Positions 3,238 through 48,654 of a DNA stretch of 64,000 bases are shown here, in pieces. The number at the start of each line of letters is the position of its first letter. The first letter of the stretch is position 1. The DNA is taken from positions 128,136 to 192,135 of the forward strand of contig WARV01000008.1 in the NCBI GenBank assembly GCA_013387205.1. Reading direction: 5' to 3'. The notes below the pieces were generated by a model, which had not been told where the DNA came from, ran no database searches, and saw only the letters and a program-made list of their open reading frames with translations. The DNA is from Patescibacteria group bacterium. GTDB taxonomy: Bacteria > Patescibacteriota > Doudnabacteria > UBA920. The translations under genes and the position numbers were made by a program.

Positions 3238-3362
3238 GTCATTGCGAGGAGCGCATCCGATCGAGACAATCTGATCACCGGGCGTCATCCTGAGTGCAGC
3301 CGAAGGATCTCAATAAAAATAAGAGATTCTTCGCCCTCAGATGCATTCGGGCTCAGAATGAC
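3238..3362. repeat. GTCATTGCGAG-family modular palindromic repeat, copy 1 (modules A + B + inverted B), inside greA 5' UTR
   Basis: gtcattgcgagg...caatc ; gtcatcctgagtgcagccgaaggatctc ; loop ; gagattcttcg...ctcagaatgac. Confidence 0.7.
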
Positions 3363-3398
3363 GCCGTTGGCTGACACACTCGCCAAAATGCAATCATA

Positions 3399-3860
3399 AT
3401 GTCCAAAAAATATTTACTGACCCAGGAGGGTCTGGAAAAACTGAACCAAGAATTAAAAACCTTGATTAATGAAAAGCGCAAGGAAGTCATTGAGCGCATC
3501 CGCGAGGCGGCTGCCCATGGTGACTTGTCCGAAAACGCAGATTACGCGCAGGCCAGGGAAGAACAGAGTTTTATAGAAGGCAGGATCATGGAAATTGAAG
3601 ATATCATAAAGAACGCGGAAATCATTTCCACTTCCACGCACCATTCCAGCGTGACCATTGGTTCAACCGTTGCGGTTAAGGCCGGCGGCCAAGACAGAAA
3701 GTATACCATTGTCGGCAGCAACGAAGCCAACCCGAAAGAAGGCAAAATTTCCAATGAATCAGTTGTCGGCAGGTCATTACTCGGCCGTAAAATCGGCGAA
3801 AAGTTCAAAGTCGCAACCCCGGCAGGTGAAATTGATTACGAAATAGTTTCGATTGAATAA
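3399..3860 (+). CDS. greA: transcription elongation factor GreA
   Basis: N-terminal coiled coil (LTQEGLEKLNQELKTL...GDLSENADYAQAREEQSFIEGRI) and C-terminal FKBP-like domain; 153 aa. Confidence 0.9.
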   Translation: MSKKYLLTQEGLEKLNQELKTLINEKRKEVIERIREAAAHGDLSENADYAQAREEQSFIEGRIMEIEDIIKNAEIISTSTHHSSVTIGSTVAVKAGGQDRKYTIVGSNEANPKEGKISNESVVGRSLLGRKIGEKFKVATPAGEIDYEIVSIE

Positions 3861-3875
3861 GCTTTGATAATACTA

Positions 3876-3909
3876 AACAGCTCATTTGGCTAAATGAGCT
3901 GTTTTTGTT
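3876..3909 (+). terminator. rho-independent terminator after greA
   Basis: aacagctcatttggctaaatgagctgtt + tttgtt. Confidence 0.6.
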
Positions 3910-3927
3910 ATACTTTAAGCATAAAAA

Positions 3928-4023
3928 TAATCCGAATTATCCGAATATTATCCAAATGACCCGAATAGGGAAGAACTCATTTGGGGCATTCGGATGCTGA
4001 TTCGGGGCATTAGGATTACATAA
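3928..4023. repeat. ~95-bp palindromic ATCCGAAT/ATTCGGAT element, copy A, ending exactly at lysS start codon
   Basis: aatccgaattatccgaat...caaatgacccgaa...catttgg.gcattcggatgctgattcggggcattaggattacataa; near-identical copy upstream of tsf. Confidence 0.6.
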
Positions 4024-5490
4024 ATGTCAGAAAGACTAGAAGACATCATCAAACACAGGAAATTAAAACTTGAAAATATAAAGCAGCTTGGTATGGACCC
4101 GTATCCGTCCAGCACTTCCCGCACGCATTCAAATAAAGAAGTAATTGAAGACTTCGACAAGCTCAGCCAACAATCCGAACCAGTGACTTTAGTCGGCCGC
4201 ATCCGCAGCCTAAGAACCATGGGCAAACTGGCTTTTGCGCACATTGAAGACGGCACAGCCAAGATTCAAGTCTTGTTTAAATCCGACAATATAGGCGATG
4301 ACCAGTTTAATTTCTTGCTGGAAAATATTGATATTGGAGATTTTATTGAAGCGACCGGCAGCTTATTCATCACCAAAACCAATGAAAAAACTTTGCAGGC
4401 TAAAAACTATAAACTATTAGCTAAAAGCCTGTTGCCGCTTCCAAGCGAACACTACGGTTTAAACGATGAAGAAACCAGGCTTAGAAAGCGCTACCTGGAT
4501 ATACTGCTTAACCCCGAAGTCAAAGATTTATTCGTAAAATCTGCCAAATTTTGGGGCTCAATGAGGGAATTTTTGGTTAAAAAGGGCTTTTTAGAGCTAG
4601 AAATGCCTGTTTTAGAGCCGATTCCGGGCGGAGCCGAGGCAGAACCGTTTATAACCCATCACAATGCCCTAGACCGCGATTTTTACCTTAGGATAAGCCT
4701 TGAATTACCCTTAAAAAAGATGCTTGTTGCCGGATTTGAAAAGGTTTTTGAAATTGGCCGAATTTTCCGCAATGAAGGAATCGATACCGAACATTTGCAA
4801 GATTACACCCAAATGGAATTTTACTGGGCATACGGCGACTTTGAAAAACTCATGCAATTTTTGCAAGACATGTACCAATATATCATCAAAGAAACTTTCG
4901 GCACGCTGCAAATACAAAGCCGCGGAATGACATGCGACTGGAGCGGACAATGGGAAAGAGTGAGCTATATTGATTTATTCAAAAAGCAAACTGGCATAGA
5001 TTTATCTGACGCTAGTAATGACGACTTACGAAAGTATCTCGATAAGAACCACATTAAATACGATCCTGGTTTCCATCGCGGCAAGTTGATTGATACGATT
5101 TTCAAAACAGTCAGGTCTTCCATTCCTTTGGACAAACCCGTGTTCTTAATTGACCAGCCGGTGGAACTGGAACCTTTGGCAAAAAAAGATCCCAAGAACC
5201 CCAAAATAGTCCAGCGCTTACAGATTATCGCTTATGGAACAGAACTCGGCAAAGGTTTTGGCGAGCTTAACGACCCAGTTGACCAGCGTGCCAGATTTGA
5301 GGAGCAGATGCAGAGAAGGGAAGCAGGGGACAAAGAAGCGCAGATGATTGACAACGATTATTTGGAAGCCATGGAATACGGCATGCCGCCGGCAGCCGGT
5401 TTTGGCGTTTCTCAAAGGCTATTTGCGTTCTTGGCCGACAAGCCTATCCGCGAAACCGTCATCTTCCCGCCAATGAAAAGTGAAAAATAA
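4024..5490 (+). CDS. lysS: lysine--tRNA ligase (class II)
   Basis: OB anticodon-binding N-domain, class II motifs (FRNEGIDTEHLQDYTQMEFYWAY, GELNDPVDQRARFEEQ), 488 aa. Confidence 0.95.
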   Translation: MSERLEDIIKHRKLKLENIKQLGMDPYPSSTSRTHSNKEVIEDFDKLSQQSEPVTLVGRIRSLRTMGKLAFAHIEDGTAKIQVLFKSDNIGDDQFNFLLENIDIGDFIEATGSLFITKTNEKTLQAKNYKLLAKSLLPLPSEHYGLNDEETRLRKRYLDILLNPEVKDLFVKSAKFWGSMREFLVKKGFLELEMPVLEPIPGGAEAEPFITHHNALDRDFYLRISLELPLKKMLVAGFEKVFEIGRIFRNEGIDTEHLQDYTQMEFYWAYGDFEKLMQFLQDMYQYIIKETFGTLQIQSRGMTCDWSGQWERVSYIDLFKKQTGIDLSDASNDDLRKYLDKNHIKYDPGFHRGKLIDTIFKTVRSSIPLDKPVFLIDQPVELEPLAKKDPKNPKIVQRLQIIAYGTELGKGFGELNDPVDQRARFEEQMQRREAGDKEAQMIDNDYLEAMEYGMPPAAGFGVSQRLFAFLADKPIRETVIFPPMKSEK

Positions 5491-5494
5491 ATAC

Positions 5495-5548
5495 CAAAAA
5501 CTTATAGGTCCAATATGACTTATAAGTCCTATCAGTCCTATTTGACTT
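5495..5548. repeat. CTTATAAGTCCTATAGG / TCCTATCAGTC repeat cluster (locus 1 of 3)
   Basis: aaaaacttataggtccaatatgacttataagtcctatcagtcctatttgacttatg; related copies at 33993 and 40705. Confidence 0.4.
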
Positions 5549-6136
5549 ATGAAATTACTCCTCGGCACTAGCAATGAAGGCAAAATCAGGCATTATAAAA
5601 AATTCCTATCAAATGCAAATCTGGAATTGGTTACGTTAAAAGATGTTGGCATAACAGATGAGCCGGAAGAAACAGGAATGACGCTTGAGGAAAATGCAAC
5701 ACTTAAAGCAAAATTCTATTATGAAAAATCAGGATTACCAACTCTTGCCGACGATGCTGGTTTTGAAATCCCGGCTTTAAATAACTTTCCCGGTGTGCAA
5801 TCTAGAAGAATAGATGGAATTACCAGAACCGATAAAGAAATTTTGGATATAATAATTGACCGGATGAAGGATTTAAAAAGCCAAGACAGGGCAGCGAGAA
5901 TGAAAGTCGCTCTGGCACTAGCTTTAGATAAAGATGATATTAAAATTGCGACAGGTGAAATTACCGGAATAGTCCCCGAAAAACCTTACGAAAAACTGGA
6001 AGACTATTTTCCCTACCGCTCGCTCCTGTTTATTCCGCAGTTAAACAAGTGGTTTTACGACTTAACCGAAGACGAAGAAAATATGCTTGGATATAGGAAG
6101 GCGGCTGCAGAAAAAATCAAACAATATTTATTATAA
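5549..6136 (+). CDS. rdgB: non-canonical purine NTP pyrophosphatase (RdgB/HAM1 family)
   Basis: MKLLLGTSNEGKIRHYKKFL ... TLEENATLKAKFYYEKSGLPTLADDAGFEIPALNNFPGVQSRR typical of Maf/Ham1 ITPase. Confidence 0.8.
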   Translation: MKLLLGTSNEGKIRHYKKFLSNANLELVTLKDVGITDEPEETGMTLEENATLKAKFYYEKSGLPTLADDAGFEIPALNNFPGVQSRRIDGITRTDKEILDIIIDRMKDLKSQDRAARMKVALALALDKDDIKIATGEITGIVPEKPYEKLEDYFPYRSLLFIPQLNKWFYDLTEDEENMLGYRKAAAEKIKQYLL

Positions 6137-6140
6137 GTTT

Positions 6141-6572
6141 ATGGATAAACAAACCCCCGTGGTCCTGGCGGTGATCCGAAATACTAAAAACCAAGTTTTG
6201 ATAGCAAAACGTAAGGACGAAGATACAATAGGTGCACATGATATGTGGGAATTAGTCGGCGGAAAAATAGAGTTTGGCGAGACGCCGGAACAAGCATTAA
6301 TCAGGGAAGTTAAAGAAGAAACCGGACTTGATGTAAAAATTACCAGGTTGATACCAATTGTAAAATCCCAAGTATGGGAAAAGAAAAACGGGGACAAAAC
6401 ACAAGTCATTCTTATTTCTTACGAATGTTTGGCAGAAGATGCCTCCCAACTCAAACAGAATTTAATTGACGAGGTCCAGGAAGCAAAATTTATTAACATC
6501 AGCGAACTCGATGACTACAATTTTCTCCCGCTCGATAAAGAATTGATATTAAGTTTAAATCTTAAATCGTAA
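6141..6572 (+). CDS. NUDIX hydrolase (MutT-like)
   Basis: Nudix box GGKIEFGETPEQALIREVKEETGLDV; start moved to in-frame ATG 6141 to avoid overlap with rdgB. Confidence 0.75.
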   Translation: MDKQTPVVLAVIRNTKNQVLIAKRKDEDTIGAHDMWELVGGKIEFGETPEQALIREVKEETGLDVKITRLIPIVKSQVWEKKNGDKTQVILISYECLAEDASQLKQNLIDEVQEAKFINISELDDYNFLPLDKELILSLNLKS

Positions 6573-6589
6573 ATCTAAAATCTACAAAT

Positions 6590-9821: not shown

Positions 9822-9843
9822 TTATGTAAATAATACTTGCAAA

Positions 9844-9878
9844 GGGCATCCTTGATCTGATCAAGGATGCCCTTTTTT
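9844..9878. terminator. hairpin terminator (AAAGGGCAYCC family, copy 1) with T6
   Basis: gggcatccttgatctgatcaaggatgccc + tttttt. Confidence 0.7.
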
Positions 9879-9892
9879 GATACCCCACGAAT

Positions 9893-9915
9893 ACCTCAAC
9901 CGATGGTTGAGCCAT
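9893..9915. repeat. GGCTCAACC-N4-GGTTGAGCC hairpin family, degenerate copy 1
   Basis: cctcaaccgatggttgagcc. Confidence 0.5.
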
Positions 9916-9928
9916 TCAATTCCGCATA

Positions 9929-10042
9929 CCCCGTATATCAACATTCGATTCTGTTATTTTACCCAGCTTTGATAACAACCAAGTCTTGTTGTAATATCAG
10001 CATATTGATATTGCTAACCATATCGAATGTTGTATTACGGGG
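9929..10042. mobile_element. MITE-like element, copy 1 (~114 bp, ~21-bp terminal inverted repeats CCCCGTATATCAACATTCGAT)
   Basis: near-identical second copy at 48989..49101; TIR ccccgtatatcaacattcgat / atcgaatgttgtattacgggg; no coding capacity. Confidence 0.7.
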
Positions 10043-10076
10043 CTTAAATAAGCCAATTATATTTTCTACAAAAAAC

Positions 10077-12824: not shown

Positions 12825-12848
12825 GGGATTAAACTGAACTCATCCTAT

Positions 12849-12962
12849 CCTTCTCTTTAGCAAAGAGAAGGAACCAACTAAGTAAGATTAGTAAATAATT
12901 ATCAGCTAACCTTTCTTAGCATGTTCTCCCTCTTTTCTAAAGAGGGAGACAGAGGGAGTTCT
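12849..12962. repeat. structured direct repeat unit 1 (two hairpins CCTYCTCTTT-N3-AAAGAGRAGG plus CTTAGCATGTTC core) flanking DUF559 gene
   Basis: ccttctctttagcaaagagaaggaaccaactaa...cttagcatgttctccctcttttctaaagagggagacagagggagttc; second unit at 13348..13459. Confidence 0.6.
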
Positions 12963-12984
12963 GAATTAGTTATGTTTTTAATTG

Positions 12985-13335
12985 TTAGATTGTTTTAACG
13001 ATTTCTTCGTATACACCCTCAATATTATTCAAGACATCATTATTCCAAAAACGGATGACATAGACACCTATGCTATTTAAGTATTCAGTTCTTTCCTTAT
13101 CATAAAGCTTATCAACTTCCAGATTATGCTGTCCGCCATCGATCTCTATACATAACTTTATTGAAGGGCAATAAAAATCGAGGATATACCTTCCAACCCC
13201 GTATTGCCTAAAAAACTTTAAACCCTTTATTTTCCTGTTTCTTACAATTCCCCAAATTTTCCTTTCCGCATCTGTAAGTCTTTTACGTAATGTTTTTCGT
13301 ATTTCTTTTGTTTGGGACTTGTTATAGATTCTCAT
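12985..13335 (-). CDS. DUF559 endonuclease-domain protein (Vsr/restriction-endonuclease-like fold)
   Basis: LTDAERKIWGIVRNRKIKGLKFFRQY...YILDFYCPSIKLCIEIDGGQH...VIRFWNNDV typical of DUF559; 116 aa. Confidence 0.75.
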   Translation of the reverse strand: MRIYNKSQTKEIRKTLRKRLTDAERKIWGIVRNRKIKGLKFFRQYGVGRYILDFYCPSIKLCIEIDGGQHNLEVDKLYDKERTEYLNSIGVYVIRFWNNDVLNNIEGVYEEIVKTI

Positions 13336-13347
13336 GGAAATTCTTAA

Positions 13348-13459
13348 CTCCTCCTGTCCTCCTCTTTTTTAAAGAGGAGGAACCAACTAAAACGCTAAAA
13401 TGATAATCATCACCACATCGTCTTAGCATGTTCCCTCTCTTTACCAAAGAGAAGGGCAG
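13348..13459. repeat. structured direct repeat unit 2 (same architecture as 12849..12962, with compensatory stem substitutions)
   Basis: cctcctcttttttaaagaggaggaaccaactaaaacg...cttagcatgttccctctctttaccaaagagaagggcagggtgagttcc. Confidence 0.6.
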
Positions 13460-13470
13460 GGTGAGTTCCG

Positions 13471-15144
13471 TTATTCAATTTTATACACCGCCATTGTGGC
13501 TTGGTTGAATTTATTGCGGTATTCGAGAAATAAACGAGCTTGCGGATGGTATTGCTTGAATTTCTTGATGTCAAAAATGCTGGATTGGGTAAAGATAACT
13601 TTATCGCCAAGCTTTAAATTGGAGAGCTTCCAGGAATCTTCCGGGTCAACTTGGTTGTATGGCACATTGCAAGGATCACTGAAATCACCATGCCAGTTGC
13701 TGGTTAAATAATCGGTTGTTTGCACCGAGAATTTATCGAGCACGAGATAAGTATGTTCCTTATCGCAATTTTGGACAAGATATTTACTGGTTCTGGTTAA
13801 GTCTGACCTGAAGTAATAAAAATTTTCCGGAGAATTTGCCGCATAAACAAAATACAAAAAGTAAGTCTGCAAAATTAATGCCAAGACAAAAGCCGCAGCT
13901 GCAAATTTAAACGCGTTCAGCACTAGCCTGGATCTTCTTGAATCATCCATGTGGTATTTGGTATAGACTCCGTGGTGCGCTTTTAGCACAATGCGGCAAA
14001 ATTCATAAATCGCCCATGCGGTTATTATAAACACGACAGGGATTGTGCCGATGGACCTAAGCCCATGGGGAATTCCTTCTGCCGTAGTGATAACAGGAAG
14101 CAACATACCCCAAAACCATCCGGTTAATAGGAAATACGGCCAAAAATGCTTCCTTTTGTTCGGCGCAAAAAAATACCAAATGCCGAAAATAGTGACAATT
14201 ACCAAGCCGATACCGAAAAACGGGCTGATGATTTGCGACAGGAAGGGGAATCCGGAAATGTTATGCCGCCAATTCAAATCGCCTTTAGTAAAGTAGGCAA
14301 GCATGCTTTCCTTTAAAACCTGCCCGACTGTACCGATTAAATTGCCATGGTTAAGCTCCGGGTTAAATACGCTAACCTGTCCGCTACGGCCGACAAATGA
14401 ACCAGGGTGGGTGTAAAAATATTTCGCAATGGGATAAATAAAAACTACAAAACCGATAATAAAACTGATAACAGGTAATTTATAACTAGAAGCAGTTTTC
14501 CAGAATTGTTTTTGCTTGATTTGGGCAAGCAGCGGCCAGGCTATTATCATAAACAAAATAGGAGCCATTATGCGGTAAGCGATGTATGTGTAAAAACCCA
14601 AGGCAAATGACGCGCCGGTAAGCAATGCCAAAATCATGCGATTTCTTAAAGTTTTTGACTGGAAACTGGCAATCAGCAAATACAAAGTCAGGGTGGAAAA
14701 GAGGGGAATAAGATTGGCGCGAAAAGCAGTACGTGACAAAACCACATACCAGGAATTTACAGCCATCAAAAATGAAGCCAAAAGAGCGATGTTAACGGAA
14801 CGGTTTTTGTCTTCGCCATTAAACATGGAAAACAACCTTCTGGTTAAAAAGAAAGTAATTAAAACCGACAAAACTCCTACTAAAGCCGAAACAATATGAT
14901 GTTGCCACGGACCTTTGCCAAAAAGTTCAACGCTGCCCCAAAGCATGTAAAAGAACAAGGCCTCCCTTCCGTTCCCGCGTTCGTAAAACGGCTGTAAGTG
15001 CCCTTGCTGCATTAAGTTAATATCCAATCCGTTGGCGGCTTCATCAGGGAATAGTCCGCCAGGCATAATGTTAATTTGGTAAAATCTAAAAAACACGGCC
15101 AAAAATATTATGCCGATTAAGAACAATTTTTGTTTCTGCGTCAT
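13471..15144 (-). CDS. membrane glycosyltransferase, PMT/ArnT (GT39/GT83-like) family, paralog
   Basis: FYQINIMPGGLFPDEAANGLDINLMQQG... N-terminal motif and ~12 TM segments; 557 aa. Confidence 0.75.
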   Translation of the reverse strand: MTQKQKLFLIGIIFLAVFFRFYQINIMPGGLFPDEAANGLDINLMQQGHLQPFYERGNGREALFFYMLWGSVELFGKGPWQHHIVSALVGVLSVLITFFLTRRLFSMFNGEDKNRSVNIALLASFLMAVNSWYVVLSRTAFRANLIPLFSTLTLYLLIASFQSKTLRNRMILALLTGASFALGFYTYIAYRIMAPILFMIIAWPLLAQIKQKQFWKTASSYKLPVISFIIGFVVFIYPIAKYFYTHPGSFVGRSGQVSVFNPELNHGNLIGTVGQVLKESMLAYFTKGDLNWRHNISGFPFLSQIISPFFGIGLVIVTIFGIWYFFAPNKRKHFWPYFLLTGWFWGMLLPVITTAEGIPHGLRSIGTIPVVFIITAWAIYEFCRIVLKAHHGVYTKYHMDDSRRSRLVLNAFKFAAAAFVLALILQTYFLYFVYAANSPENFYYFRSDLTRTSKYLVQNCDKEHTYLVLDKFSVQTTDYLTSNWHGDFSDPCNVPYNQVDPEDSWKLSNLKLGDKVIFTQSSIFDIKKFKQYHPQARLFLEYRNKFNQATMAVYKIE

Positions 15145-19552: not shown

Positions 19553-19652
19553 ATATAAATATCATTCCCGGAAAACGAGCGATCGCTCGAAATCCGGGAA
19601 CTGGTTAGAATCAATAAAACAGGGCGAGGGTTGAGCCATTCATGGACGCTAC

Positions 19653-19687
19653 AAAGGGCATCCTTGGTCAGACCAAGGATGCCCTTT
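19653..19687. terminator. hairpin (AAAGGGCAYCC family, copy 2), likely bidirectional terminator between rplU and recR
   Basis: aaagggcatccttggtcagaccaaggatgcccttt. Confidence 0.5.
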
Positions 19688-19708
19688 GTTTCAATTTAGT
19701 TTGATAAA

Positions 19709-21996: not shown

Positions 21997-23046
21997 TTAC
22001 GCCAAAATGCTAATATTTTTAAGGATACCATCTAACTGTTCAAGACTATTTACCTGGCTTAATTCTTTGCGAAGTTCAGAGGCATTCGGAAAACCCTTAA
22101 AATACCAAAGCAGGTGTTTTCTAAGTTCAAGCATACCTCTGTCGCCCTTATATCGGTACACAAGGTGCGCCTGGTCCATTATGGTTTGGATTCGTGTCTG
22201 CAAATTTATTTCTGGCTTAAACTTCCCTTCCAAAGCGGATTTGATTTCTGCAAAAATGAACGGGTTGCCGAGAGAGCTTTGTGCGACCATCACACCATCA
22301 GCACCAGTGTGCTGTAAAGCCTGTTTTGCTTTTTCACCGGAATCTATTCCGCCGTTAATCAGCACGGTTACGTCCGTATCTTTGAAAAATTCTTTTACCT
22401 GTTTGCCGATATCCCAATTAGGCTGGCCGTGATGGACTTGCTCGTATGTCCTCATGTGCACTGTGACGTTTTCAAAAGGCGCGCCTTTAATGGCCTGTAA
22501 AAAATCCAAAGCCGTGACATGCTTGTATGAAGCGCGCAGTTTAATAGATGTCGGCAGATTAGCTGCTTCTTTTACTAAAGTAACAATTTTCTTTGCAGCC
22601 TCAGGGTTTAAAAACAAGCAGCTGCCCGCGCCGTTATTTATAACGCTTCTGGCTGGACAGCCGAAGTTAATGTCAAACCCGTCGGGATTAAACCTGTGTT
22701 TCAAGATTTTTGCGGCAATGGAAAAATGTTCCGGTGTCGGGCCGAACAATTGGATAATAAACGGCCGCTCTTCTTCTATAAATTCAGCGAGCCTGCAAGA
22801 CTTATCATCAGCCCATATGGCGTCATCCTGAGCACAGTGAAGCATCTCTTTATCTGATAGCGATAACGGATCTTTTCCGATTAAACTTTTTACCTTATAA
22901 TATAGCGCGTCAGTGGAAATAAATTCGCTGAATGTGATATCCGAGCCCCATTTTCTCGCAACTGAGCGCGCGGCAATATCCGTAACTCCGCTCATGGGAG
23001 CCAAGGCCACAACAGGCTTTTTGATTGTTTTCCAGGAAAAAGGCAT
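21997..23046 (-). CDS. dus: tRNA-dihydrouridine synthase (DusB-like) carrying an in-frame repeat-derived insertion
   Basis: ALAPMSGVTD..., FMN-binding TIM-barrel motifs (QLFGPTPEHF, NFGCPARSV, INGGI); ~24 extra aa (EMLHCAQDD...) relative to E. coli DusB spacing. Confidence 0.85.
   Translation of the reverse strand: MPFSWKTIKKPVVALAPMSGVTDIAARSVARKWGSDITFSEFISTDALYYKVKSLIGKDPLSLSDKEMLHCAQDDAIWADDKSCRLAEFIEEERPFIIQLFGPTPEHFSIAAKILKHRFNPDGFDINFGCPARSVINNGAGSCLFLNPEAAKKIVTLVKEAANLPTSIKLRASYKHVTALDFLQAIKGAPFENVTVHMRTYEQVHHGQPNWDIGKQVKEFFKDTDVTVLINGGIDSGEKAKQALQHTGADGVMVAQSSLGNPFIFAEIKSALEGKFKPEINLQTRIQTIMDQAHLVYRYKGDRGMLELRKHLLWYFKGFPNASELRKELSQVNSLEQLDGILKNISILA
22822..22848. repeat. B-module of GTCATTGCGAG family (GTCATCCTGAGCACAGTGAAGCATCTC) embedded in-frame in dus
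   Basis: 27-nt match to gtcatYctgagtgcaNccgaagRatctc; encodes EMLHCAQDD on the minus strand. Confidence 0.55.
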
Positions 23047-27399: not shown

Positions 27400-27490
27400 T
27401 TTGTTTCAGTTCCGTTTTTGATTTATGTTATTATAACATGCTTTGTTGCAAAAAACAAAAAAATAAGTTAAAATATAGGAAATTAGTATT

Positions 27491-27605
27491 GTCATTGCGA
27501 GAAGCCCGCAGGGCGACGTGGCAATCTAATCCTAAATCGAGATCCTTCGGATGCACTCAGGATGACGCCTGTGGCGCCAGATCAGATGCATTCGCCCGCA
27601 ATGAC
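27491..27605. repeat. GTCATTGCGAG-family repeat, copy 2 (A + inverted B + inverted A-end), immediately upstream of adk start
   Basis: gtcattgcgagaagc...ggcaatc ; gagatccttcggatgcactcaggatgac ; ...cgcccgcaatgac. Confidence 0.7.
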
Positions 27606-31666: not shown

Positions 31667-32137
31667 CTACTAAATACTAATATTTACTAATAATACTAAA
31701 CTTAATTTTGTAAATTAATTATCCTTTTATATTTGACTCCTGTTTTTGTAAAATTAGCCAAAATACCTAATTTAATTTTTGCAGTTTTAATATAGTCGTT
31801 AACTTGCTTTATGTTTTTTAACCCAAAATTTTCATTTTTCTTAATCTCTAGTATTATCTTTGCGTCATTAATATCTATCAAAAAGTCAATATAGTATATT
31901 CCGATATATTTGCCTAAATAATATAGTTTTATCGGATATTGCTCAATAAAATTGATACCTGCAAATTTTAATGCCAATGAAACCGCTTTTTGGTAATGCC
32001 TTTCCAGTAATTCTCCACCCAATTCCTTAAAAACTTGATATAAAATCCCAATTATTTTATAGCACTCGTCTTTATAAATAAGATCTTTACGGTGCATTTA
32101 TTTTTAGTACTTTTAGTAAATTTTAGTATTTAGTAGT
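31667..32137. mobile_element. ~471-bp unit: GxxExxY-family gene bounded by 33-bp imperfect terminal inverted repeats
   Basis: left ctactaaatactaatatttactaataatact (31667..31700) vs reverse complement of right agtacttttagtaaattttagtatttagtag (32106..32136), ~30/33 match; extremely AT-rich. Confidence 0.55.
31702..32097 (-). CDS. GxxExxY-family protein (PD-(D/E)XK nuclease-like fold)
   Basis: ECYKIIGILYQVFKELGGELLERHYQKA N-terminal signature resembling TIGR04256 GxxExxY; 131 aa. Confidence 0.6.
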   Translation of the reverse strand: MHRKDLIYKDECYKIIGILYQVFKELGGELLERHYQKAVSLALKFAGINFIEQYPIKLYYLGKYIGIYYIDFLIDINDAKIILEIKKNENFGLKNIKQVNDYIKTAKIKLGILANFTKTGVKYKRIINLQN

Positions 32138-32262: not shown

Positions 32263-32554
32263 CCCCGCCCTTCAGATTGCATTCAAAGACTAAACTTTAA
32301 TCTCTTTCTCAGCTGGCTCCATGAACTACCGTATTGTTTCAGCTTTCTTTCCCGAATCTTTGCGTCTCGGGATTCAGCAAATGCCTCGTAATACACTAAT
32401 CGATAGGGAGCATATGCTTTGGTAGATTGGACTTTGAATGCATTATGTTCAGAAAATCTTTGTTTAAGATCGGTTGATTCACCGATATACGTATAGTCTT
32501 CTTTTAGACTTTTGATTACGTAAACATAATGCATATGCAATCTGAAGAGCGGGG
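32263..32554. mobile_element. ~290-bp unit: GIY-YIG gene bounded by 17-bp terminal inverted repeats CCCCGCYCTTCAGATTG / CAATCTGAAGRGCGGGG
   Basis: ccccgcccttcagattg at 32263..32279 and caatctgaagagcgggg at 32538..32554 (16/17 complementary). Confidence 0.5.
32283..32534 (-). CDS. GIY-YIG nuclease-domain protein
   Basis: YVYVIKS...YIGESTDLKQRFSEHN GIY-YIG motif; ~84 aa; start taken at ATG 32534 (track uses TTG 32540). Confidence 0.75.
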   Translation of the reverse strand: MHYVYVIKSLKEDYTYIGESTDLKQRFSEHNAFKVQSTKAYAPYRLVYYEAFAESRDAKIRERKLKQYGSSWSQLRKRLKFSL

Positions 32555-32738: not shown

Positions 32739-32767
32739 TTGACATAATTGCCTAAATAGCCTATAAT
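32739..32767 (+). promoter_or_regulatory. consensus sigma70 promoter TTGACA-17-TATAAT
   Basis: ttgaca taattgcctaaatagcc tataat; shares 13-mer ttgacataattgc with 49150. Confidence 0.6.
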
Positions 32768-32802
32768 TACGCCACGTATTATATTCCATAGGAGGAAACA
32801 AA

Positions 32803-32892
32803 ATGCGACTCTTCAACGGACCGCCCACGCAGTCCAACTTCACTCACAATTACTTTTCCTTGGCTTCCACGTCCGAGTCCGCGAAAAACTGA
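32803..32892 (+). CDS. 29-codon ORF with strong SD at 5' end of GC-rich transcript (MRLFNGPPTQSNFTHNYFSLASTSESAKN)
   Basis: aggagga 7 nt upstream of ATG 32803; TGA stop 32890..32892. Confidence 0.3.
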   Translation: MRLFNGPPTQSNFTHNYFSLASTSESAKN

Positions 32893-33410
32893 CCGCCGGC
32901 GCCGGCCGCGAACCAGTTGAGCAGTGATCGAAAGGAGAAAGATGGACAACTGGCATCCTACCGGTTTTACCTAGACACTGCTGCAGTCGGCAGTGTCAAC
33001 CAAGAACCCTCTTGCCGGGCAATTTCCTGCCCGCCGGCCCGCCCGCGAAAATTTCACGGCTGCGCGGCTACAAGCCTGGCAATACAAACGGGGCGACGGC
33101 CTGAGACCTTATGGTCAATACTTTGGCCGCCTGCCAATACATCGTTCCATCGTTGATGTTGTTGTTACGCCAGCGAGCGGCGACAGGACATGCGATTAGA
33201 CCAGAAAGTTTTGGCTCGGTACCGCACCTGCGCGCGCCATCATCCCCATGGGGATGATGGCATTGGGCTGGCGTTGGGCAGCGCGGGAGATATCCCTAAC
33301 ATTGCTGCCCAGAGTGGTACCCGCTATCTAGCGGGGATGTGTAGTACGCGGGGCCGCACCCCCGCGAAAGACGCCGGCCGGCGCATAAAACCCGCGCCGG
33401 CCCCAACAAA

Positions 33411-33449
33411 AGCCCCTAGGACCTAAAAATCCTGGGGGCTATTTATTTT
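33411..33449 (+). terminator. rho-independent terminator ending the GC-rich unit
   Basis: agcccctaggacctaaaaatcctgggggct (11-bp stem incl. one G-U) + atttatttt. Confidence 0.6.
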
Positions 33450-33552
33450 GTCATTGCGAGCGACTGAAAGGAGCGCGGCAATCTGTACATCAAGAGATTG
33501 CTTCCACCTTCGCTAAAGCTACGGCGGACAAGTCGGATGCACTCGTGATGAC
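33450..33552. repeat. GTCATTGCGAG-family repeat, copy 3
   Basis: gtcattgcgagcgactgaaaggagcgcggcaatc ... gagattgcttc...tcggatgcactcgtgatgac. Confidence 0.65.
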
Positions 33553-33969: not shown

Positions 33970-34040
33970 GAATGGCTCATCCGATGGTTGAGGTATTCAG
34001 CCTATCAGTCTGATACGACTTATGTGTCCTATAGGACTTA
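33970..34040. repeat. GGCTCAACC-family hairpin (degenerate) followed by TCCTATCAGTC/ATAGGAC repeat cluster (locus 2)
   Basis: gaatggctcatccgatggttgaggtattc ; cctatcagtctgatacgacttatgtgtcctataggacttat. Confidence 0.45.
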
Positions 34041-34115
34041 TTGGACAGATATGGAATAGGCGGTCAGATGACCGCCTATAAATCTTACATCTTATATCTT
34101 ACCTCTTATATCTCC

Positions 34116-40335: not shown

Positions 40336-40353
40336 TTGGAGGTTTACCACCGG

Positions 40354-40704: not shown

Positions 40705-40788
40705 ATTTGTCTTATAAGTCCTATAGGACCTATAGGTCGTATAAGACTGATAGGATAGCGAATGGCTCAACCCACGGTTGAGGTGTTC
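40705..40788. repeat. ATAGGAC/CTTATAAG repeat cluster (locus 3) plus GGCTCAACC-family hairpin
   Basis: cttataagtcctataggacctataggtcgtataagactgataggat ; gaatggctcaacccacggttgaggtgttc. Confidence 0.45.
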
Positions 40789-42559: not shown

Positions 42560-42640
42560 ATTTTGAAACCCTCTTCTCCTTGCCAGGAGAAGAGTTGGAG
42601 ATGAGGTCGAAACACGGCAACAGACCCAGATATATTTCAC

Positions 42641-42716
42641 AAAGGGCACCCTTTATCAGATAAAGGGTGCCCTTTGTTGTGTCTGGTGAACGGCTCAACC
42701 CACGGTTGAGCCGTTC
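42641..42716. repeat. AAAGGGCAYCC-family hairpin (copy 3) followed by GGCTCAACC-family hairpin
   Basis: aaagggcaccctttatcagataaagggtgcccttt ; gaacggctcaacccacggttgagccgttc. Confidence 0.5.
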
Positions 42717-43035: not shown

Positions 43036-43072
43036 AGAAGCAACAAAAATAGCGCCGGGAAGTATTCCGGCG

Positions 43073-43996
43073 CTATATCTTTATTTCCGCATATCTCCAC
43101 TTGCCCGCGAAATCTTTGTGGAAATTTATTACTGCATTTGGCAGATTTTTTTTAATTAGATGATTTAATTCCTGCTTTTGTCTTGGATCGAATTCCAAAT
43201 AAACTAATTTTGGCTTGTTTTTTCTCTGCGCGATTTGCTCCAAAAGTTTTCTGATTAACACCAGCCCATTTTCTTTTGCAAAAATGGAATTTTTCGGCTC
43301 AAATTTTAAATTTGCTTTAAGTTTTTTATAATCACTAACTGGAACGTAGGGGAGATTGGCGATTATAATATCAAAATCTCCTTTAACATTTTTCAGTAAA
43401 TCGCTTTTTATGAATTGAATACCACTCACGCCAATTCTCCCATACGCTGGAGTATGGGAGTTTTTGGCTAAAATATTTTTAGCGTTCTCTTTTGCAACCT
43501 TCAAAGCTTTTTCTGATATATCTGATGCAACAATCCGCAATTCGTAATCCGCAATCCGAAATTCTTTCGCCAACGAAACCGCAATGCATCCGCTTCCTGT
43601 CCCAATGTCCAAAATTTTTACAATGTCATTGCGAGGAGCCAGGGCTTTATCTGGCGACGAAGCAATCTTTTCTTGGCTTGGTTTAGATTGCTTCGCTCGG
43701 ATGCACTCGCTCGCAATGACAAGGTCCACCACCATCTCCGTCTCCGGCCTGGGGATTAAAACATCCTTATTCACCTTAAACCTTAAGCCCCTAAAATCCT
43801 TGTATCCCAAAATATACGCAATCGGTTCGCCTTTAAGGCGGCGTTTAATGAATTTTGTTAAATTGTTATATTGTTTTTTTGTTAAATTGTAATCTGGATG
43901 CAAAAAAACAAACTCCTTGGGCTTTTTCAAAACATGCGCCAGCAGGAGTTCAATTTCTATTTTATGGTATTTTTTTAAAGCCACGCTGATTGTCAT
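43073..43996 (-). CDS. prmC: release-factor glutamine methyltransferase (PrmC/HemK) with in-frame repeat-element insertion
   Basis: PRPETEMVV, DIGTGSGCIAVSLA, NLPY(V) motif (ANLPYVPVSD); ~30 extra residues between PETE and DIGTG. Confidence 0.85.
   Translation of the reverse strand: MTISVALKKYHKIEIELLLAHVLKKPKEFVFLHPDYNLTKKQYNNLTKFIKRRLKGEPIAYILGYKDFRGLRFKVNKDVLIPRPETEMVVDLVIASECIRAKQSKPSQEKIASSPDKALAPRNDIVKILDIGTGSGCIAVSLAKEFRIADYELRIVASDISEKALKVAKENAKNILAKNSHTPAYGRIGVSGIQFIKSDLLKNVKGDFDIIIANLPYVPVSDYKKLKANLKFEPKNSIFAKENGLVLIRKLLEQIAQRKNKPKLVYLEFDPRQKQELNHLIKKNLPNAVINFHKDFAGKWRYAEIKI
43625..43720. repeat. GTCATTGCGAG-family repeat, copy 4, with perfect terminal inverted repeats GTCATTGCGAG/CTCGCAATGAC, inserted in-frame in prmC
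   Basis: gtcattgcgaggagccagggctttatctggcgacgaagcaatc...tcggatgcactcgctcgcaatgac; 96 bp = 32 codons (residues ~92-123 of PrmC). Confidence 0.65.
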
Positions 43997-44376
43997 TCTA
44001 AACTTGGGTTATGCGCTTGTTCACGTAAAAACTTTATTCTCGACTTTAGTTCTTTGCTGATATTTTTTCCCTTTATTTCATTTGCCAAATTAATTCCATA
44101 CAATTCCCAAAACCATCTGTAAAAGATTTCTAAATAAGGAGTAGTGTGGCCCCATCTTCCAACTTCAGATGTTTTTTCAAAATTTGCCTGGTTTTCTTTG
44201 AAATACTCCTGGACTATCTCTTTTAAGCGGGCGGATTCTATAACCGAAAGGTTTTCAATGTCAAAATCACTGGCAATCCGCTCTTTTAACGATTCTAAAA
44301 GATAAGGAAAGCTTTTGGCTTTTTCCTTGGCCTGTTCTATAAGCTGGTCAGTTGTTAGATACTCCGGATTTTCCAT
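43993..44376 (-). CDS. hypothetical protein between prfA and prmC
   Basis: ORF in prfA-prmC operon; start taken at ATG 44376 (7 nt after prfA stop). Confidence 0.4.
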   Translation of the reverse strand: MENPEYLTTDQLIEQAKEKAKSFPYLLESLKERIASDFDIENLSVIESARLKEIVQEYFKENQANFEKTSEVGRWGHTTPYLEIFYRWFWELYGINLANEIKGKNISKELKSRIKFLREQAHNPSLE

Positions 44377-44383
44377 ATTTTTG

Positions 44384-45454: not shown

Positions 45455-45625
45455 ATTTTAATTGACAAAATTTAAAAAATTTAAATAATTGACATAATTA
45501 TTACTGCAGAATATTTTTGTTCATTTTTGTCATTTATGTCAATTTTGTCATTTCCCGTATTTTACCACACTCCCAACACAAAAGCATCCCCAAAAAGAGG
45601 ATGCTGATGTTTGATGATAAAACGT

Positions 45626-45886
45626 CTACTTAGTCGCTCTTGCTTTTCTCGGCTTCTTTGGAGTGGCTTTAGCCTTAAGCTGGGCAGCCAAAGCAGTGCG
45701 CTTCTTGAATTTATCAACGGTACCGGTGGTGTCAATTAACTTCTGCTTGCCGGTATAAAACGGATGGCACTGGCTGCAGATTTCAGTGTGCAATTCCTGC
45801 ATGCTGGAACCGGTAGTAAACTTGCTGCCGCAAGCGCAAGAAACCTTAGCGTCGTTATAATATTTTGGGTGGATATTGTTCTTCAT
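45626..45886 (-). CDS. rpmE: 50S ribosomal protein L31
   Basis: [10 protein letters not shown]...CxC...[13 protein letters not shown] zinc-ribbon L31 plus basic C-terminal tail. Confidence 0.9.
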
Positions 45887-45904
45887 ATAATAGTAATCCT
45901 AATC

Positions 45905-45985
45905 TGCGAATGGCATCCGAATCAGCGAATGACTATGAATATAATATTCGGGTCATTCGGATATGATTCGGGTCATTCGGATCGG
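45905..45985. repeat. ATTCGGAT/ATCCGAAT repeat cluster
   Basis: gcgaatggcatccgaatcagcgaatgac...attcgggtcattcggatatgattcgggtcattcggat. Confidence 0.45.
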
Positions 45986-46084
45986 TTAAATTGGTTAACT
46001 TATCAGAATTATCTCATATATTATAATCTCTCTTGCCAAAATAGTCAAGGCCTGGTATAATTACAGCAATATTAATCTAACATG

Positions 46085-46205
46085 CTTTGGATGCTTTTCT
46101 GTCCCGGTTTTCCGCCCTGTTGTGGCGGATCGGGATTCCCAAGGCAGAAGTGGCCCGCCTTCGTTCCGATAAAATCGGAACTACGGTGTGGCGAAGAAAG
46201 GGTAA
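46085..46205 (+). promoter_or_regulatory. GC-rich structured 5' leader of rpsB (possible S2 autoregulatory element)
   Basis: ccgccctgttgtggcggatcgggattcccaaggcagaagtggcccgcc...; GC-rich in AT-rich genome directly upstream of rpsB. Confidence 0.3.
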
Positions 46206-46208
46206 ATA

Positions 46209-46937
46209 ATGAAAGAGATAACTCTCTTGGACCTGCTTAAAAGCGGCGCTCACTTTGGACACACCACCTCAAAATGGAACCCCAAAATGAAGCCGTATAT
46301 TTTTACGGTCCGCAACAACATCCATATTTTGGATTTGGAAAAGACTAAAAAGGCCTTGCTTAACGCCGCCAAGTTCGCCCAGGACATAACTTCCAAGGGC
46401 GGTACGGTTTTATTCATTGGCACCAAAAGGCAGTCAAAGGAAATAATCAAGAAAGCAGCCCAGTCCTGCAGCATGCCTTATGTTAATGTCCGCTGGCTGG
46501 GAGGAACTTTTACCAACCACAGGACTATCCAAAGGACCATCCATAAGCTGGAACGCCTGGAAAATTTAAAAGCTACCGGCGAACTGGAAAGCCATTACAC
46601 CAAAAAGGAAAGATTGCTCATTGAGCGTGAAATTGAAAAGATGAAAAAATTGTTCGAAGGCATACAGAACATGAAGCGCTTGCCTGAAGCGATTTTTGTC
46701 ACCGACGTCAAACATGACGACATTGCAGTAAAAGAAGCGCAAAAGAGCAGGGTCAAAGTCATCGGCTTGGCTGATACTAACAGCAACCCGGACGGATTAG
46801 ACTATGCCATTCCTTGCAACGACGACGCGACTAAAGCTATTGAACTTATGTGCACTGTAATTTCCGAAGCCATTAACGAAGGCAGAAAAACCCAGGCAGT
46901 CGTTAAAGAGAGCCTGGTCAAAGAAAATCAAAAATAA
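46209..46937 (+). CDS. rpsB: 30S ribosomal protein S2
   Basis: LLKSGAHFGHTTSKWNPKMKPYIF...; 242 aa. Confidence 0.95.
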   Translation: MKEITLLDLLKSGAHFGHTTSKWNPKMKPYIFTVRNNIHILDLEKTKKALLNAAKFAQDITSKGGTVLFIGTKRQSKEIIKKAAQSCSMPYVNVRWLGGTFTNHRTIQRTIHKLERLENLKATGELESHYTKKERLLIEREIEKMKKLFEGIQNMKRLPEAIFVTDVKHDDIAVKEAQKSRVKVIGLADTNSNPDGLDYAIPCNDDATKAIELMCTVISEAINEGRKTQAVVKESLVKENQK

Positions 46938-46942
46938 GTAAC

Positions 46943-47034
46943 ATAATCCGAATTATCCGAATTCTATACAAATGACCCGAAAAGGGAATTATTTGGAGCA
47001 TTCGGATACTAATTCGGGGCATTAGGATTATAAA
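46943..47034. repeat. ~95-bp palindromic ATCCGAAT/ATTCGGAT element, copy B, ending exactly at tsf start codon
   Basis: ataatccgaattatccgaattctatacaaatgacccgaaaagggaattatttggagcattcggatactaattcggggcattaggattataaa. Confidence 0.6.
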
Positions 47035-47616
47035 ATGGACAATTCATTACTAAAAGAACTCCGCGAAATGACCGGTGCAGGCATGATGGAAATTAAGGAA
47101 GCCTTGGCCGAGACCAACAACGACAAAGAAAAAACCATTGAGCTCTTAAGGAAAAAGGGCGCGCTTAAGCTCGGCAAAAAAGCCGACCGCGTAGCAAAAG
47201 AGGGGATAATTGAAACCTACATACACCCGGGCGGACGCATGGGCGTTTTGCTTGAACTTAACTGCGAAACCGATTTCGTCGCCAGGACAGACGCGTTTAA
47301 ATCTTTGGCTAAGGAAGTCTGCTTGCATGTTGCAGCAGCCAACCCATTGTACGTTTCCGTAAATGACGTGCCTGCCGAAGTCATCGAAAAAGAAAAGGAA
47401 ATTTACAAGGAACAAATGAAAGGCAAGCCCGAAGACGTCATTGCCAAAATTATGGAAGGCAAACTTGCCAAATACTTCGAAGAAGTTTGCCTGCTTGAGC
47501 AGCCGTATGTAAAAAATCCGGATATTAAAATAAAGGATTTAATCGGCGAAGCTGTCGCGAAAATCGGGGAAAACGTGCAAATCCGCCGCTTTACCCGCTA
47601 TGTATTAGGAAGCTAA
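47035..47616 (+). CDS. tsf: elongation factor Ts (short form)
   Basis: UBA-like N-terminus LKELREMTGAGMMEIKEALAETNND, dimerisation domain; 193 aa. Confidence 0.9.
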   Translation: MDNSLLKELREMTGAGMMEIKEALAETNNDKEKTIELLRKKGALKLGKKADRVAKEGIIETYIHPGGRMGVLLELNCETDFVARTDAFKSLAKEVCLHVAAANPLYVSVNDVPAEVIEKEKEIYKEQMKGKPEDVIAKIMEGKLAKYFEEVCLLEQPYVKNPDIKIKDLIGEAVAKIGENVQIRRFTRYVLGS

Positions 47617-47660
47617 ACAAAAATAACATCTAACATTTGACATGTGACATTTAACTAACA

Positions 47661-47689
47661 GTCAAAGGTCAATTGTCAAAGGTCAAAGG
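47661..47689 (+). promoter_or_regulatory. three GTCAAAGG direct repeats upstream of TPR gene
   Basis: gtcaaaggtcaattgtcaaaggtcaaagg. Confidence 0.25.
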
Positions 47690-47698
47690 TATCCAAAA

Positions 47699-48559
47699 TT
47701 GAGTTACCAGATGCTGCCAAATATAATTTTTATATTTGCACTTGCGGGAATTATTTTGATAATTCTCAGGCGTTTGCCTGAGGCAGTGCAGATACAAGAC
47801 CACGAAGGCCAGCAGGAGCCGGTAGATAAAAGACTGATGGGCAAAGGATTGCCCGCGCAGGCTTTTTCCAAAGCCAAAGTCTGGTCCAGGCTCTGGTCAA
47901 CAAAAATCTGGAATTTTATTTTGGAAGCCAAGGACTTAAAGCCAAACCCGGTAACCGGGTACAGGATTAAAAAGATATTCGGCCATATCCATAAAGCTTC
48001 GCCGGACGTACAAAAACCGGCTGATATTGCTCCGGCAACAGCTGTTGCCGCAGCCGTTCCAGCCCAGCCCAAAGATGAAAATTTTTATCTGGAACTCATA
48101 AAAAAAGAACCGAAAAATTTGGCGAACTACGACGCTTTGGGAAAATTCTACGTTGAAAAGGAAAATTTCGCCGACGCCAAAGACATTTACCTGTACTTAA
48201 CCAGCCACGAGCCGACTAAGGCTGACCATCACGGCAGGCTGGCATTCTGTTATTACAAGATGGGAATGTTCGACAAGGCAGCCGAACACTACAAGACTTC
48301 CATAGACATGGATTCCACCCAGCCCAACCGTTATTATAATTGGGCGCTGTGTTTGGAGGCCAAGGGGGATTTTATTGGCGCAATAAAAGCTTACCAGCAG
48401 GCAATTGCCTTAGAGCACAAAAACTGCAAATTCCATATTGGATTAAGCAATGCTTTTGCCAAAACGGGGGATAAAGAAAAAGCGAAACAGGCCTTATTGG
48501 AAGCGCAAAAAATTGACCCCTTTAATGAGATAGTAAAATCAAAGCTGAAACATTTTTAG
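47699..48559 (+). CDS. TPR-repeat protein with N-terminal TM anchor
   Basis: N-terminal TM; TPR-like repeats (YYKMGMFDKAAEHYKTSIDMD, ALCLEAKGDFIGAIKAYQQAIALE). Confidence 0.6.
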   Translation: MSYQMLPNIIFIFALAGIILIILRRLPEAVQIQDHEGQQEPVDKRLMGKGLPAQAFSKAKVWSRLWSTKIWNFILEAKDLKPNPVTGYRIKKIFGHIHKASPDVQKPADIAPATAVAAAVPAQPKDENFYLELIKKEPKNLANYDALGKFYVEKENFADAKDIYLYLTSHEPTKADHHGRLAFCYYKMGMFDKAAEHYKTSIDMDSTQPNRYYNWALCLEAKGDFIGAIKAYQQAIALEHKNCKFHIGLSNAFAKTGDKEKAKQALLEAQKIDPFNEIVKSKLKHF

Positions 48560-48567
48560 ATGTTGAT

Positions 48568-48654
48568 GTCATTGCGAGGAAACAAGGGCTTTGGCTTGTT
48601 TCCGAAGCAATCTATATATCACTGGCGTCATTCTGAGTGCATCCGAAGAATCTC
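48568..48654. repeat. GTCATTGCGAG-family repeat, copy 5 (A + B modules)
   Basis: gtcattgcgaggaaacaagggctttggcttgtttccgaagcaatc ... gtcattctgagtgcatccgaagaatctc. Confidence 0.7.

Follow-up and report, generated by a model that had tools for sequence, protein, structure and literature searches.

Hairpin repeats in a Doudnabacteria genome are probably divergent relatives of the Ssn-related motifs

The stretch of a Doudnabacteria genome analysed here (64 kb of contig WARV01000008.1, hereafter the window) carries short palindromic repeats in gene leaders, in spacers and inside the genes prmC and dus, and the question that they raise is what kind of element they are and which protein might recognize them. 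A preliminary description of the same DNA had seen a composite element built of two distinct modules, A and B, in five intergenic loci with a further fragment in dus. We find 13 copies of a single hairpin unit (numbered U1 to U13) at six loci. These sites agree with the earlier ones, but only four of them are intergenic, the other two lying in frame in prmC and in dus. The units are probably divergent, GA-class members of the Ssn-related motifs (SRM), belonging also to the CGTC/TGTC-tagged repetitive extragenic palindromes (REPs), and would then serve as single-stranded DNA (ssDNA) sites recognized and nicked by Ssn, a small GIY-YIG nuclease.

The 13 copies follow one plan, (T/C)GTC-AT-xyz-GAG-(variable apex)-GA(A)-z'y'x'-AT-C. 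Read 5′ to 3′, each has an unpaired (T/C)GTC tag, the stem strand A-T-x-y-z, GAG, the apex, GA or GAA, the returning strand z'-y'-x'-A-T, and a C. The stem of 5 bp consists of a constant A-T and T-A followed by three freely covarying pairs, with a GA/GA(A) internal loop above it; in the window, xyz is TGC, TCT or CCT, each with its complementary tail. The copies noted before are all present and in clear excess, since GTCATTGCGAG (with up to one mismatch) is matched 7 times against 0.75 expected from dinucleotide-preserving shuffles, none of which reached 7, and GTCATYCTGAG 5 times against an expected 0.71. The generic head GTCATNNNGAG occurs 12 times, each time within one of the six loci (12/12), and there is one further GGG variant. 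An HGTC tag directly precedes the palindrome in all 13 units (TGTC in 7 and CGTC in 6) and sets the orientation of the strand-specific hairpin, a C stands right after the palindrome in 12 of the 13, and this C is followed by TC, TA, TG or TT. Both the head and a complementary tail are intact in nine units. The apex is the variable part: it may be the 3 nucleotides (nt) GNA, the 7 nt TGCATCC, or a hairpin of its own that reaches 25 nt. The variable internal hairpin described earlier is confirmed, as is the occurrence of units in both orientations.

Since all 13 units have this one architecture, modules A (xyz = TGC) and B (xyz = TCT or CCT) represent one and the same unit with variant stems, differing in the covarying triplet only, and not two elements. 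Within the window, a compensatory change of T-A to C-G already separates two of the B copies, and the two long A apices, GCCAG-GGCTTTAT-CTGGC in U9 and ACAAG-GGCTTTGG-CTTGT in U11, show compensatory changes in the apex stem around a common loop core, GGCTTT. The composite look can also be traced: the right-hand halves of the first four loci are additional, inverted units, and an inverted pair with the tags pointing outward is found at four of the five multi-unit loci, the remaining one having two units in direct order, which is the ordinary dimer and cluster organization of REP-type repeats. The inverted dimers fold into long hairpins, as had been proposed, most strongly in prmC (z = −6.8 against shuffles as DNA and −7.2 as RNA). 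At all five loci that begin with an A unit this unit is on the + strand, for which the chance is about 1 in 16; GC skew is weak.

The resemblance to a widespread bacterial motif also holds, as the A-type pattern is present in at least 120 IMG/VR contigs and genuine units were found in at least eight phyla. When the stem triplet was left free, the matches listed contained 147 distinct units, 141 of them fully complementary and comprising nine kinds of triplet (TGC/GCA 73, TCT/AGA 28, CCT/AGG 20, TCC/GGA 6, CCC/GGG 5 and four rarer). Covariation of the secondary structure, a check suggested at the outset, is indeed found in a formal pair count made on 17 distinct 25-mers only: 97.5% of the cells are paired, double-sided changes occur at 3 of the 3 free pairs, one-sided (G-U) stem changes are absent, and the covariation score was reached by 0 of 500 shuffles. 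Within the Patescibacteria, genuine units occur in Doudna-, Sacchari-, Davies- and Kuenenbacteria, and elsewhere in Bacteroidota, Myxococcota, Planctomycetota, Verrucomicrobiota, Pseudomonadota and Thermodesulfobacteriota; the pattern used for bacterial contigs was loose (16 specified bases and a variable gap), so that most of its 120 rows are chance matches and about 40 genuine units were used. The unit family colonizes phage genomes as well. A TGCANCC-apex variant of the pattern gave 0 matches in the viral contigs, the TGCA(T/G)CC apex of the window being absent there. Clustering of the open reading frames (ORFs) near units in phage contigs, done for an associated enzyme, returned phage structural proteins only. 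Some phage structural genes (IMG/VR contigs L004, L037 and L134) carry units in frame, including one for a portal-like protein with ...SARNDSPFVSLRGAEHRSNL... and another for a structural protein with the unit peptides ...EIPRFARNDG... and ...RAPQDDNS....

In this broad sample the proximal part of the unit is constant, and the apex varies provided that pairing is kept. The commonest apex, GCGNAGC, accounts for 32% of 180 A-type units and is what we take to be the d(GCGAAGC)-type GNA DNA mini-hairpin, reportedly described by Hirao and co-workers in the 1990s. Such an apex would point to a single-stranded DNA form of the unit; the mini-hairpin is a structural motif and not a genetic element, and the window units mostly have TGCA(T/G)CC or longer hairpins in its place. 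The two bases that follow ..AATC in the same 180 units are TC in 68, CA in 53 and CC in 21. Close pairs are arranged tags outward in 77 cases, against 21 and 22 for the other arrangements.

Could the hairpins instead act as RNA, controlling in cis the stability, processing or translation of mRNAs from the greA and adk leaders and from 3′ regions? Both gene identities were confirmed by Pfam, and the leader copies lie, as previously stated, in the 5′ untranslated regions, between the start codons and promoter-like sites (TTGACA-17-TAATAT at 3186-3214 for greA, TTGCAA-17-TAAAAT at 27446-27474 for adk); because these sites are just upstream, the copies would be transcribed. REPs in other bacteria are known to stabilize mRNAs (discussed in PMC3733652), and the greA locus folds well as RNA (z = −3.4), as does the prmC dimer. 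The adk locus, in contrast, folds no better than shuffles (z = −1.1 to −1.4), no unit has an Rfam match at the gathering threshold or even at E ≤ 10, both orientations are present at one locus, copies lie inside ORFs and beside tRNA genes, and the covarying pairs lack G-U intermediates. A cis-acting RNA is hence improbable, the earlier idea of processing from the leader RNAs is not borne out, and if the units are Ssn sites, whatever they do to the transcripts of greA and adk would merely follow from the places at which copies inserted. A hammerhead or k-turn reading of GTC...CUGA...GAA was rejected by eye, as the order of the elements does not fit. A literature search with the exact 11-mers returned primers and unrelated matches only.

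A described system with the same features is that of the Ssn nucleases. The Neisseria Transformation Sequence (NTS, CGTCATTCCCGCGMAVGCGGGAATCYRG) is the target that SsnA binds and cuts; this small GIY-YIG nuclease of a single domain acts on single-stranded, forward-strand DNA only and does not bind the RNA form of its motif, a further point against a function as RNA (PMC11893778). Cutting depends critically on the three nucleotides that precede the NTS palindrome, and binding on the C that follows, and ssn genes (single-domain GIY-YIG genes of the cd10448 type) are typically bracketed by SRM (PMC11893778). These critical positions are the invariant positions of the window units, which share with SRM and NTS the 5′ (H)GTC tag, a palindrome starting with A-T, in keeping with the W-Y start of SRM palindromes, and the C directly after it, as well as the 20-50-nt hairpin size, many dispersed copies and, in relatives, motif-ssn-motif cassettes whose proteins are about 50% identical to SsnA. 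They differ in the stem, which in SRM/NTS is a perfect 8 bp with a short loop and here 5 bp with tandem G-A mismatches and an extendable apex, and in the host, a bacterium of the candidate phyla radiation (CPR), which the main text of the SRM paper does not mention (PMC11893778).

The link to ssn can be seen directly in related genomes. In a syntenic Doudnabacteria locus (L311), a 96-residue GIY-YIG ORF (Pfam PF01541, E = 1e-16) lies between dnaE and thrS, with a unit upstream and an inverted dimer downstream, and its product is 50.5% identical over 94% of its length to that of an N. gonorrhoeae gene. The latter sits among 16 NTS repeats in 3.3 kb, a setting that identifies the ssnA locus. All CPR Ssn genes fetched by protein identity (L311, two genes in L314, L316, L317/L318, and the Saccharibacteria locus L257) are bracketed by units with the tags outward; several of the flanking units have the TGCA(T/G)CC apex and some the ATTGC stem, as in the window. 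In a metagenome sample of 80 loci chosen by Ssn protein homology alone, a unit in cassette orientation was present in 85 of 149 flanks (160 nt), compared with 2 of 109 control windows located 740-900 nt away, and 59 of these 85 flanking units were of the GA class. A related Doudnabacteria assembly (GCA_031291995.1) has at least 3 ssn copies. Many CPR Ssn genes were found on contigs of 500-1500 bp, the pattern expected of a multi-copy element that breaks metagenome assemblies.

The units also fit the CGTC-tagged REP superfamily, which has a CGTC/TGTC (or CCTC) tag, stems starting with A-T, a short unpaired tail, predominantly inverted dimers and in-frame intragenic copies, is without an associated transposase, and includes dRS3 of Neisseria and RPE-4 and RPE-6 of Rickettsia (PMC3733652). 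The tag, the first pairs A-T and T-A, the inverted dimers and the in-frame copies are all shared, and the peptides of intragenic copies are in the same register as those of the window, with ...ND and ...MT ends and VI... starts. The described CGTC families have stems of 8-9 bp, loops of 4-5 nt and a 3-nt tail of consensus CCA (PMC3733652), whereas here G-A pairs interrupt the stem, the apex may be as short as 3 nt or as long as a nested hairpin of 25 nt, and most tails read CTC or CTA.

The same general look, with short hairpins that carry a tag, pair up as inverted dimers and are scattered between genes, is found in REPs and REPINs mobilized by RAYT, an IS200-like Y1 HUH transposase (PMC3733652, PMC3116915), and the parallel extends to a gene-bearing cassette, gene-less inverted dimers and single hairpins recognized as ssDNA (PMC3116915). 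It is nevertheless very unlikely that a RAYT mobilizes the units, since their tag is (C/T)GTC and not GTAG, Pfam scans of the 66 window ORFs found no Y1_Tnp domain or transposase of any other kind, none is annotated beside units in the related loci, CGTC repeats are not associated with RAYT genes (PMC3733652), and the gene bracketed in relatives encodes a GIY-YIG nuclease. About as little can be said for miniature inverted-repeat transposable elements (MITEs) that descend from a DDE insertion sequence whose terminal inverted repeats read TGTCAT...ATGACA. The A-type dimers do start with TG and end with CA, with inverted ends of 11-12 bp, and the related loci have rve-family integrase genes; however, no target-site duplication flanks any locus, single units and direct pairs are common, the window lacks a transposase, and what is conserved is a hairpin with covarying pairs rather than a linear end sequence.

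The two in-frame copies show how units persist in coding sequence. The prmC dimer (U9 and U10) is 96 nt, that is, 32 codons, inserted in frame between PRPETE and ILDIGTGSG of PrmC and translated as VIASECIRAKQSKPSQEKIASSPDKALAPRNDI; an alignment of 24 homologues places it in a hypervariable loop, where the nearest homologue (63% identity) has an insert of the same kind and the others have none, or inserts from other repeat families. By its PrmC homologues, the window belongs to Candidatus Doudnabacteria within the Patescibacteria/CPR. The orthologous dimer of the nearest relative (L001) is identical at 75 of 84 aligned positions (89%), compared with 73% and 61% for the 150-nt flanks and 56% and 34% for their third codon positions, and the two inserts differ in length by a multiple of three. 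The dus unit (U13) encodes EMLHCAQDD, which closes a stretch of 28 residues that is inserted with respect to E. coli DusB. Such copies are similar to the Rickettsia palindromic elements, in which a palindromic repeat is translated within conserved proteins with the frame unbroken; RPE-1 of Rickettsia is longer (about 100-150 bp) and unrelated in sequence. In Doudnabacteria, the PrmC loop from PRPETE to the S-adenosylmethionine-binding motif (alignment columns ~105-235) is a hot spot for repeat-encoded insertions of several unrelated families, for example SAKLRSSPLLRGD...QPLPGPLL and PSPSPSGRGKPQ..LWERGRGEG, which resemble other cross-phylum palindromic repeats.

Several observations weigh against reading the window repeats as Ssn sites. 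Searching with Ssn proteins (tblastn) did not find a canonical ssn gene within the 64-kb window, and the dnaE-thrS spacer, where L311 and L316 have ssn, contains only a decayed dimer (U7/U8). Degeneration affects four of the 13 units. Watson-Crick pairing in the stem extends over 5 bp, followed by the GA/GA(A) mismatches, and not over the 8-9 perfect pairs of the CGTC REPs. The published SRM pattern, HGTCWYN(0-2)YYVSBRHN(0-5)WNVSBRGN(0-2)RNCYNB, has 0 matches in the window, and thus in none of its units; it matches the Neisseria NTS and no unit of the CPR ssn cassettes, and was built for searching, from 29 genomes that represent 4 phyla (PMC11893778), rather than to define the motif biochemically. 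Finally, either strand of a dimer presents a single arm in the orientation that can be cleaved, so a simple excision by cuts at both ends does not follow.

Some of these points would suit dead remnants of a former Ssn cassette invasion, with no cognate nuclease left and the copies kept as harmless. We consider such relics a minor possibility: besides the missing ssn, the head and tail mismatch within U7/U8 at the syntenic site and the degenerate units, the 21 kb of a related locus (L312) are entirely free of units. On the other hand, stem, tag and 3′ C are all still perfect in nine of the 13 units, conservation between the two species is higher for the prmC dimer than for the flanking codons, the absence of ssn covers only 64 kb of a genome in which this contig alone has 192 kb, and the related assembly mentioned above retains its ssn copies. 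Occupied sites also differ among the related loci, a unit between rpmE and prfA being common to L311 and L313 and not present in the window, which shows that units are gained or lost on the time scale of species divergence.

The window does encode a GIY-YIG protein, an 85-residue ORF at 32283-32540 (−) that was the one, distant match of the tblastn search with Ssn proteins, and this divergent ORF might itself be the cognate nuclease. It is single-domain, 30-36% identical to Ssn proteins, and located in the dnaE-thrS spacer in which relatives carry ssn, about 900 nt from U7/U8; the arms of its flanking hairpin contain AGATTGC...GCAATCT, resembling the tail of an A unit. It is, however, not bracketed by GTCAT units, its identity to SsnA is 31% compared with ~50% for true CPR Ssn proteins, and hairpins of RNase P RNA (L320, L321) and of 16S rRNA (L322) enclose its closest homologues, a nesting that fits a different, homing-endonuclease-like cassette. 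We therefore regard it as a poor candidate.

Taken together, the analysis directly supports how the units are built, that their stem pairs covary, that relatives have them next to ssn and that they persist in frame, and the comparisons make the family identity of the window repeats well supported. The tags-outward dimers of the window have the geometry of an ssn cassette minus the gene, and gene-less dimers may stand to ssn cassettes as REPINs do to REPtrons. From this we infer a cognate Ssn in this genome, the cutting of these divergent units and a route by which they spread. The unit would fold when the DNA is single-stranded, as in replication, repair or incoming DNA; an Ssn encoded elsewhere in the genome would recognize the tag, the stem and the 3′ C and nick a few nucleotides 5′ of the tag; and the breaks, with the recombination that they provoke, would spread, shuffle and homogenize the units. 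Copies would survive at permissive places only, namely leaders, spacers, and the surface loops of PrmC and Dus with the frame kept. Present activity in this genome and cleavage of GA-class hairpins are likewise presumed, ssDNA-restricted cleavage having been shown for the Neisseria and Wolbachia homologues only (PMC11893778).

A bolder proposal, which we hold as a speculative one, is that GA-class hairpins and their small GIY-YIG partner form an active, self-propagating Ssn cassette in CPR bacteria and phages. Gene-less dimers would then act as MITEs or REPINs, spreading by ssDNA nicking and recombinational copying without a transposase, and the element would be able to colonize essential genes in frame. 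If true, this would be a new GIY-YIG mobility mechanism outside introns and would explain the cross-phylum spread of the GTCATYCTGAGCGNAGCGAAGRATC motif.

The kind of repeat is already known (2013, 2025); new are the class missed by the published search pattern, its occurrence in CPR genomes and phage contigs, and the in-frame PrmC insertion shared between species. A very common short motif, whose peptides (VIASEAKQS, RLLRFARND, VILSEAKDL, SFASLRMT) litter metagenome assemblies and hypothetical-protein databases, gains a name and a likely protein partner, and the Ssn/SRM system would be extended to candidate-phyla bacteria and phage contigs. The published pattern misses a whole class, to which 59 of the 85 sampled ssn-flanking units belong. 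Units with a variable apex and G-A mismatch stems offer natural substrates for studying Ssn specificity, a matter of practical interest since Ssn enzymes have been proposed as site-specific ssDNA-cutting tools. For annotation, the PrmC and Dus insertions should not be read as functional protein motifs.

The individual units are as follows. The greA leader starts with U1 (3238-3271, +), which has a TGTC tag, the stem ATTGC and an imperfect tail, GACAATC; the intact, CGTC-tagged U2 (3284-3311, +; GTCATCCTGAG-TGCAGCC-GAAGGATCTC) and its inverted partner U3 (3323-3362, −; GTCATTCTGAG-CCCGAATGCATCTGAGGGC-GAAGAATCTC) together make one long hairpin. The adk leader has U4 (27491-27526, +), with stem ATTGC and the apex hairpin GCCC-GCA-GGGC, the intact U5 (27539-27566, −; GTCATCCTGAG-TGCATCC-GAAGGATCTC) and, directly 5′ of U5 on the − strand, U6 (27567-27605, −), a head only (GTCATTGCGGG and 28 nt). 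In the dnaE-thrS spacer, just past a terminator-like hairpin (33411-33440), lie U7 (33450-33483, +) and its inverted partner U8 (33494-33552, −), whose apex holds TGCATCCGA and another hairpin; because its head GTCATCACGAG is unmatched to its tail GAAGCAATCTC, U8 is a hybrid or a decayed copy. Inside prmC, a gene on the − strand, U9 (43625-43667, +) is separated by an 18-nt spacer from its inverted partner U10 (43686-43720, −). U11 (48568-48612, +) lies between a TPR gene and tRNA-Thr and is followed in direct orientation by U12 (48627-48654, +; GTCATTCTGAG-TGCATCC-GAAGAATCTC). Inside dus, also on the − strand, U13 (22822-22848, +) has one stem mismatch in its tail.

The arrangement of U6 and U5, and perhaps of U1 and U2, recurs elsewhere as tandem arrays of head-only half-units (GTCATxyzGAG and ~12 nt, with a period of 22-27 nt and 2-4 repeats) directly 5′ of a full unit. 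Such arrays were seen at L037 6118-6209, L175 880-971 and 1262-1351, L151 262-340 and 3815-3901, and in L333, L345, L355 and L356; several adjoin ssn genes, and no described mechanism accounts for them.

The window has other elements of interest. The GIY-YIG ORF at 32283-32540 is nested in a long hairpin (AGCCCCGCTCTTCAGATTGCAT-ORF-ATGCAATCTGAAGGGCGGGG) that belongs to an apparent small RNA gene between thrS and dnaE. Its homologues (L320 2081-2332, L321 5001-5252 and L322 5001-5336) are 49-67% identical and have a similar hairpin around them, which lies immediately 5′ of GGGAGGAAAGUCC in RNase P RNA or, for the L322 copy, inside a 16S rRNA gene; with 63.6 bits (E = 6e-19), the match of the L320 RNase P RNA to Rfam RNaseP_bact_a falls short of the gathering score, which is 100. 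The family looks like a homing-endonuclease-like cassette that colonizes structured RNA genes in CPR bacteria. Beside this ORF and directly upstream of thrS is a PD-(D/E)XK nuclease ORF (PDDEXK_3, E = 2e-24; 31702-32097, −), and the two genes form a compact group of stand-alone nucleases in the thrS-dnaE spacer. Repeats able to form hairpins also bracket a further small nuclease gene, the DUF559 (Vsr-like endonuclease) ORF at 12985-13335, which lies within 51-nt inverted repeats (12832-12882 and 13422-13472, 80% complementary); paired 48-nt direct repeats flank it as well (region 12832-13472), and a DUF559 ORF is present in L314 too.

At 32740-33445 (+), a promoter-like TTGACA-17-TATAAT is followed by a strong ribosome-binding site and a 30-codon mini-ORF, and then by about 600 nt of 56.5% G+C (window 42%) with no ORF above 79 residues, up to the terminator at 33411-33440. 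Rfam gave no match to this region, and the related loci contain nothing similar; it may encode a large non-coding RNA, or be foreign DNA that has decayed.

A second palindromic family, GAATGGCTCAACC-N4-GGTTGAGCCATTC, has seven copies (9890, 29741, 33971, 40761, 42689, 48949 and 56246), mostly near gene ends and unrelated to the GTCAT units. Near-identical hairpins resembling terminators, CAAAGGGCATCCTTG-N-CAAGGATGCCCTTTG(T)n, lie at three places (9840-9878, 19652-19690 and 42640-42678) and agree with one another at 85-90%. Short intergenic periodic arrays were found at 5504-5550, 33986-34050 and 40705-40754, and also at 3917-4023, 45945-45989 and 46933-47035. In one kind the repeated unit is 9 nt long and of the TAAGTCCTA / TAGGACCTA type, its 34-kb and 40.7-kb arrays being mutually inverted (50 nt, 86%), and the other, of the ATCCGAAT / ATTCGGAT type, occurs around the rpsB region and downstream of greA. 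Finally, a segment of ~160 nt is duplicated at 9890-10052 and 48949-49111 with 84-85% identity and could represent either the gene of a small RNA or a fragment that is mobile. The segment starts with a GGCTCAACC palindrome followed by TACCCCGTATATCAACATTCGATTC...GGGGCTTA, and a similar string, CCCCGTATATCAAC...ACGGGG, lies upstream of the GIY-YIG ORF in L320.

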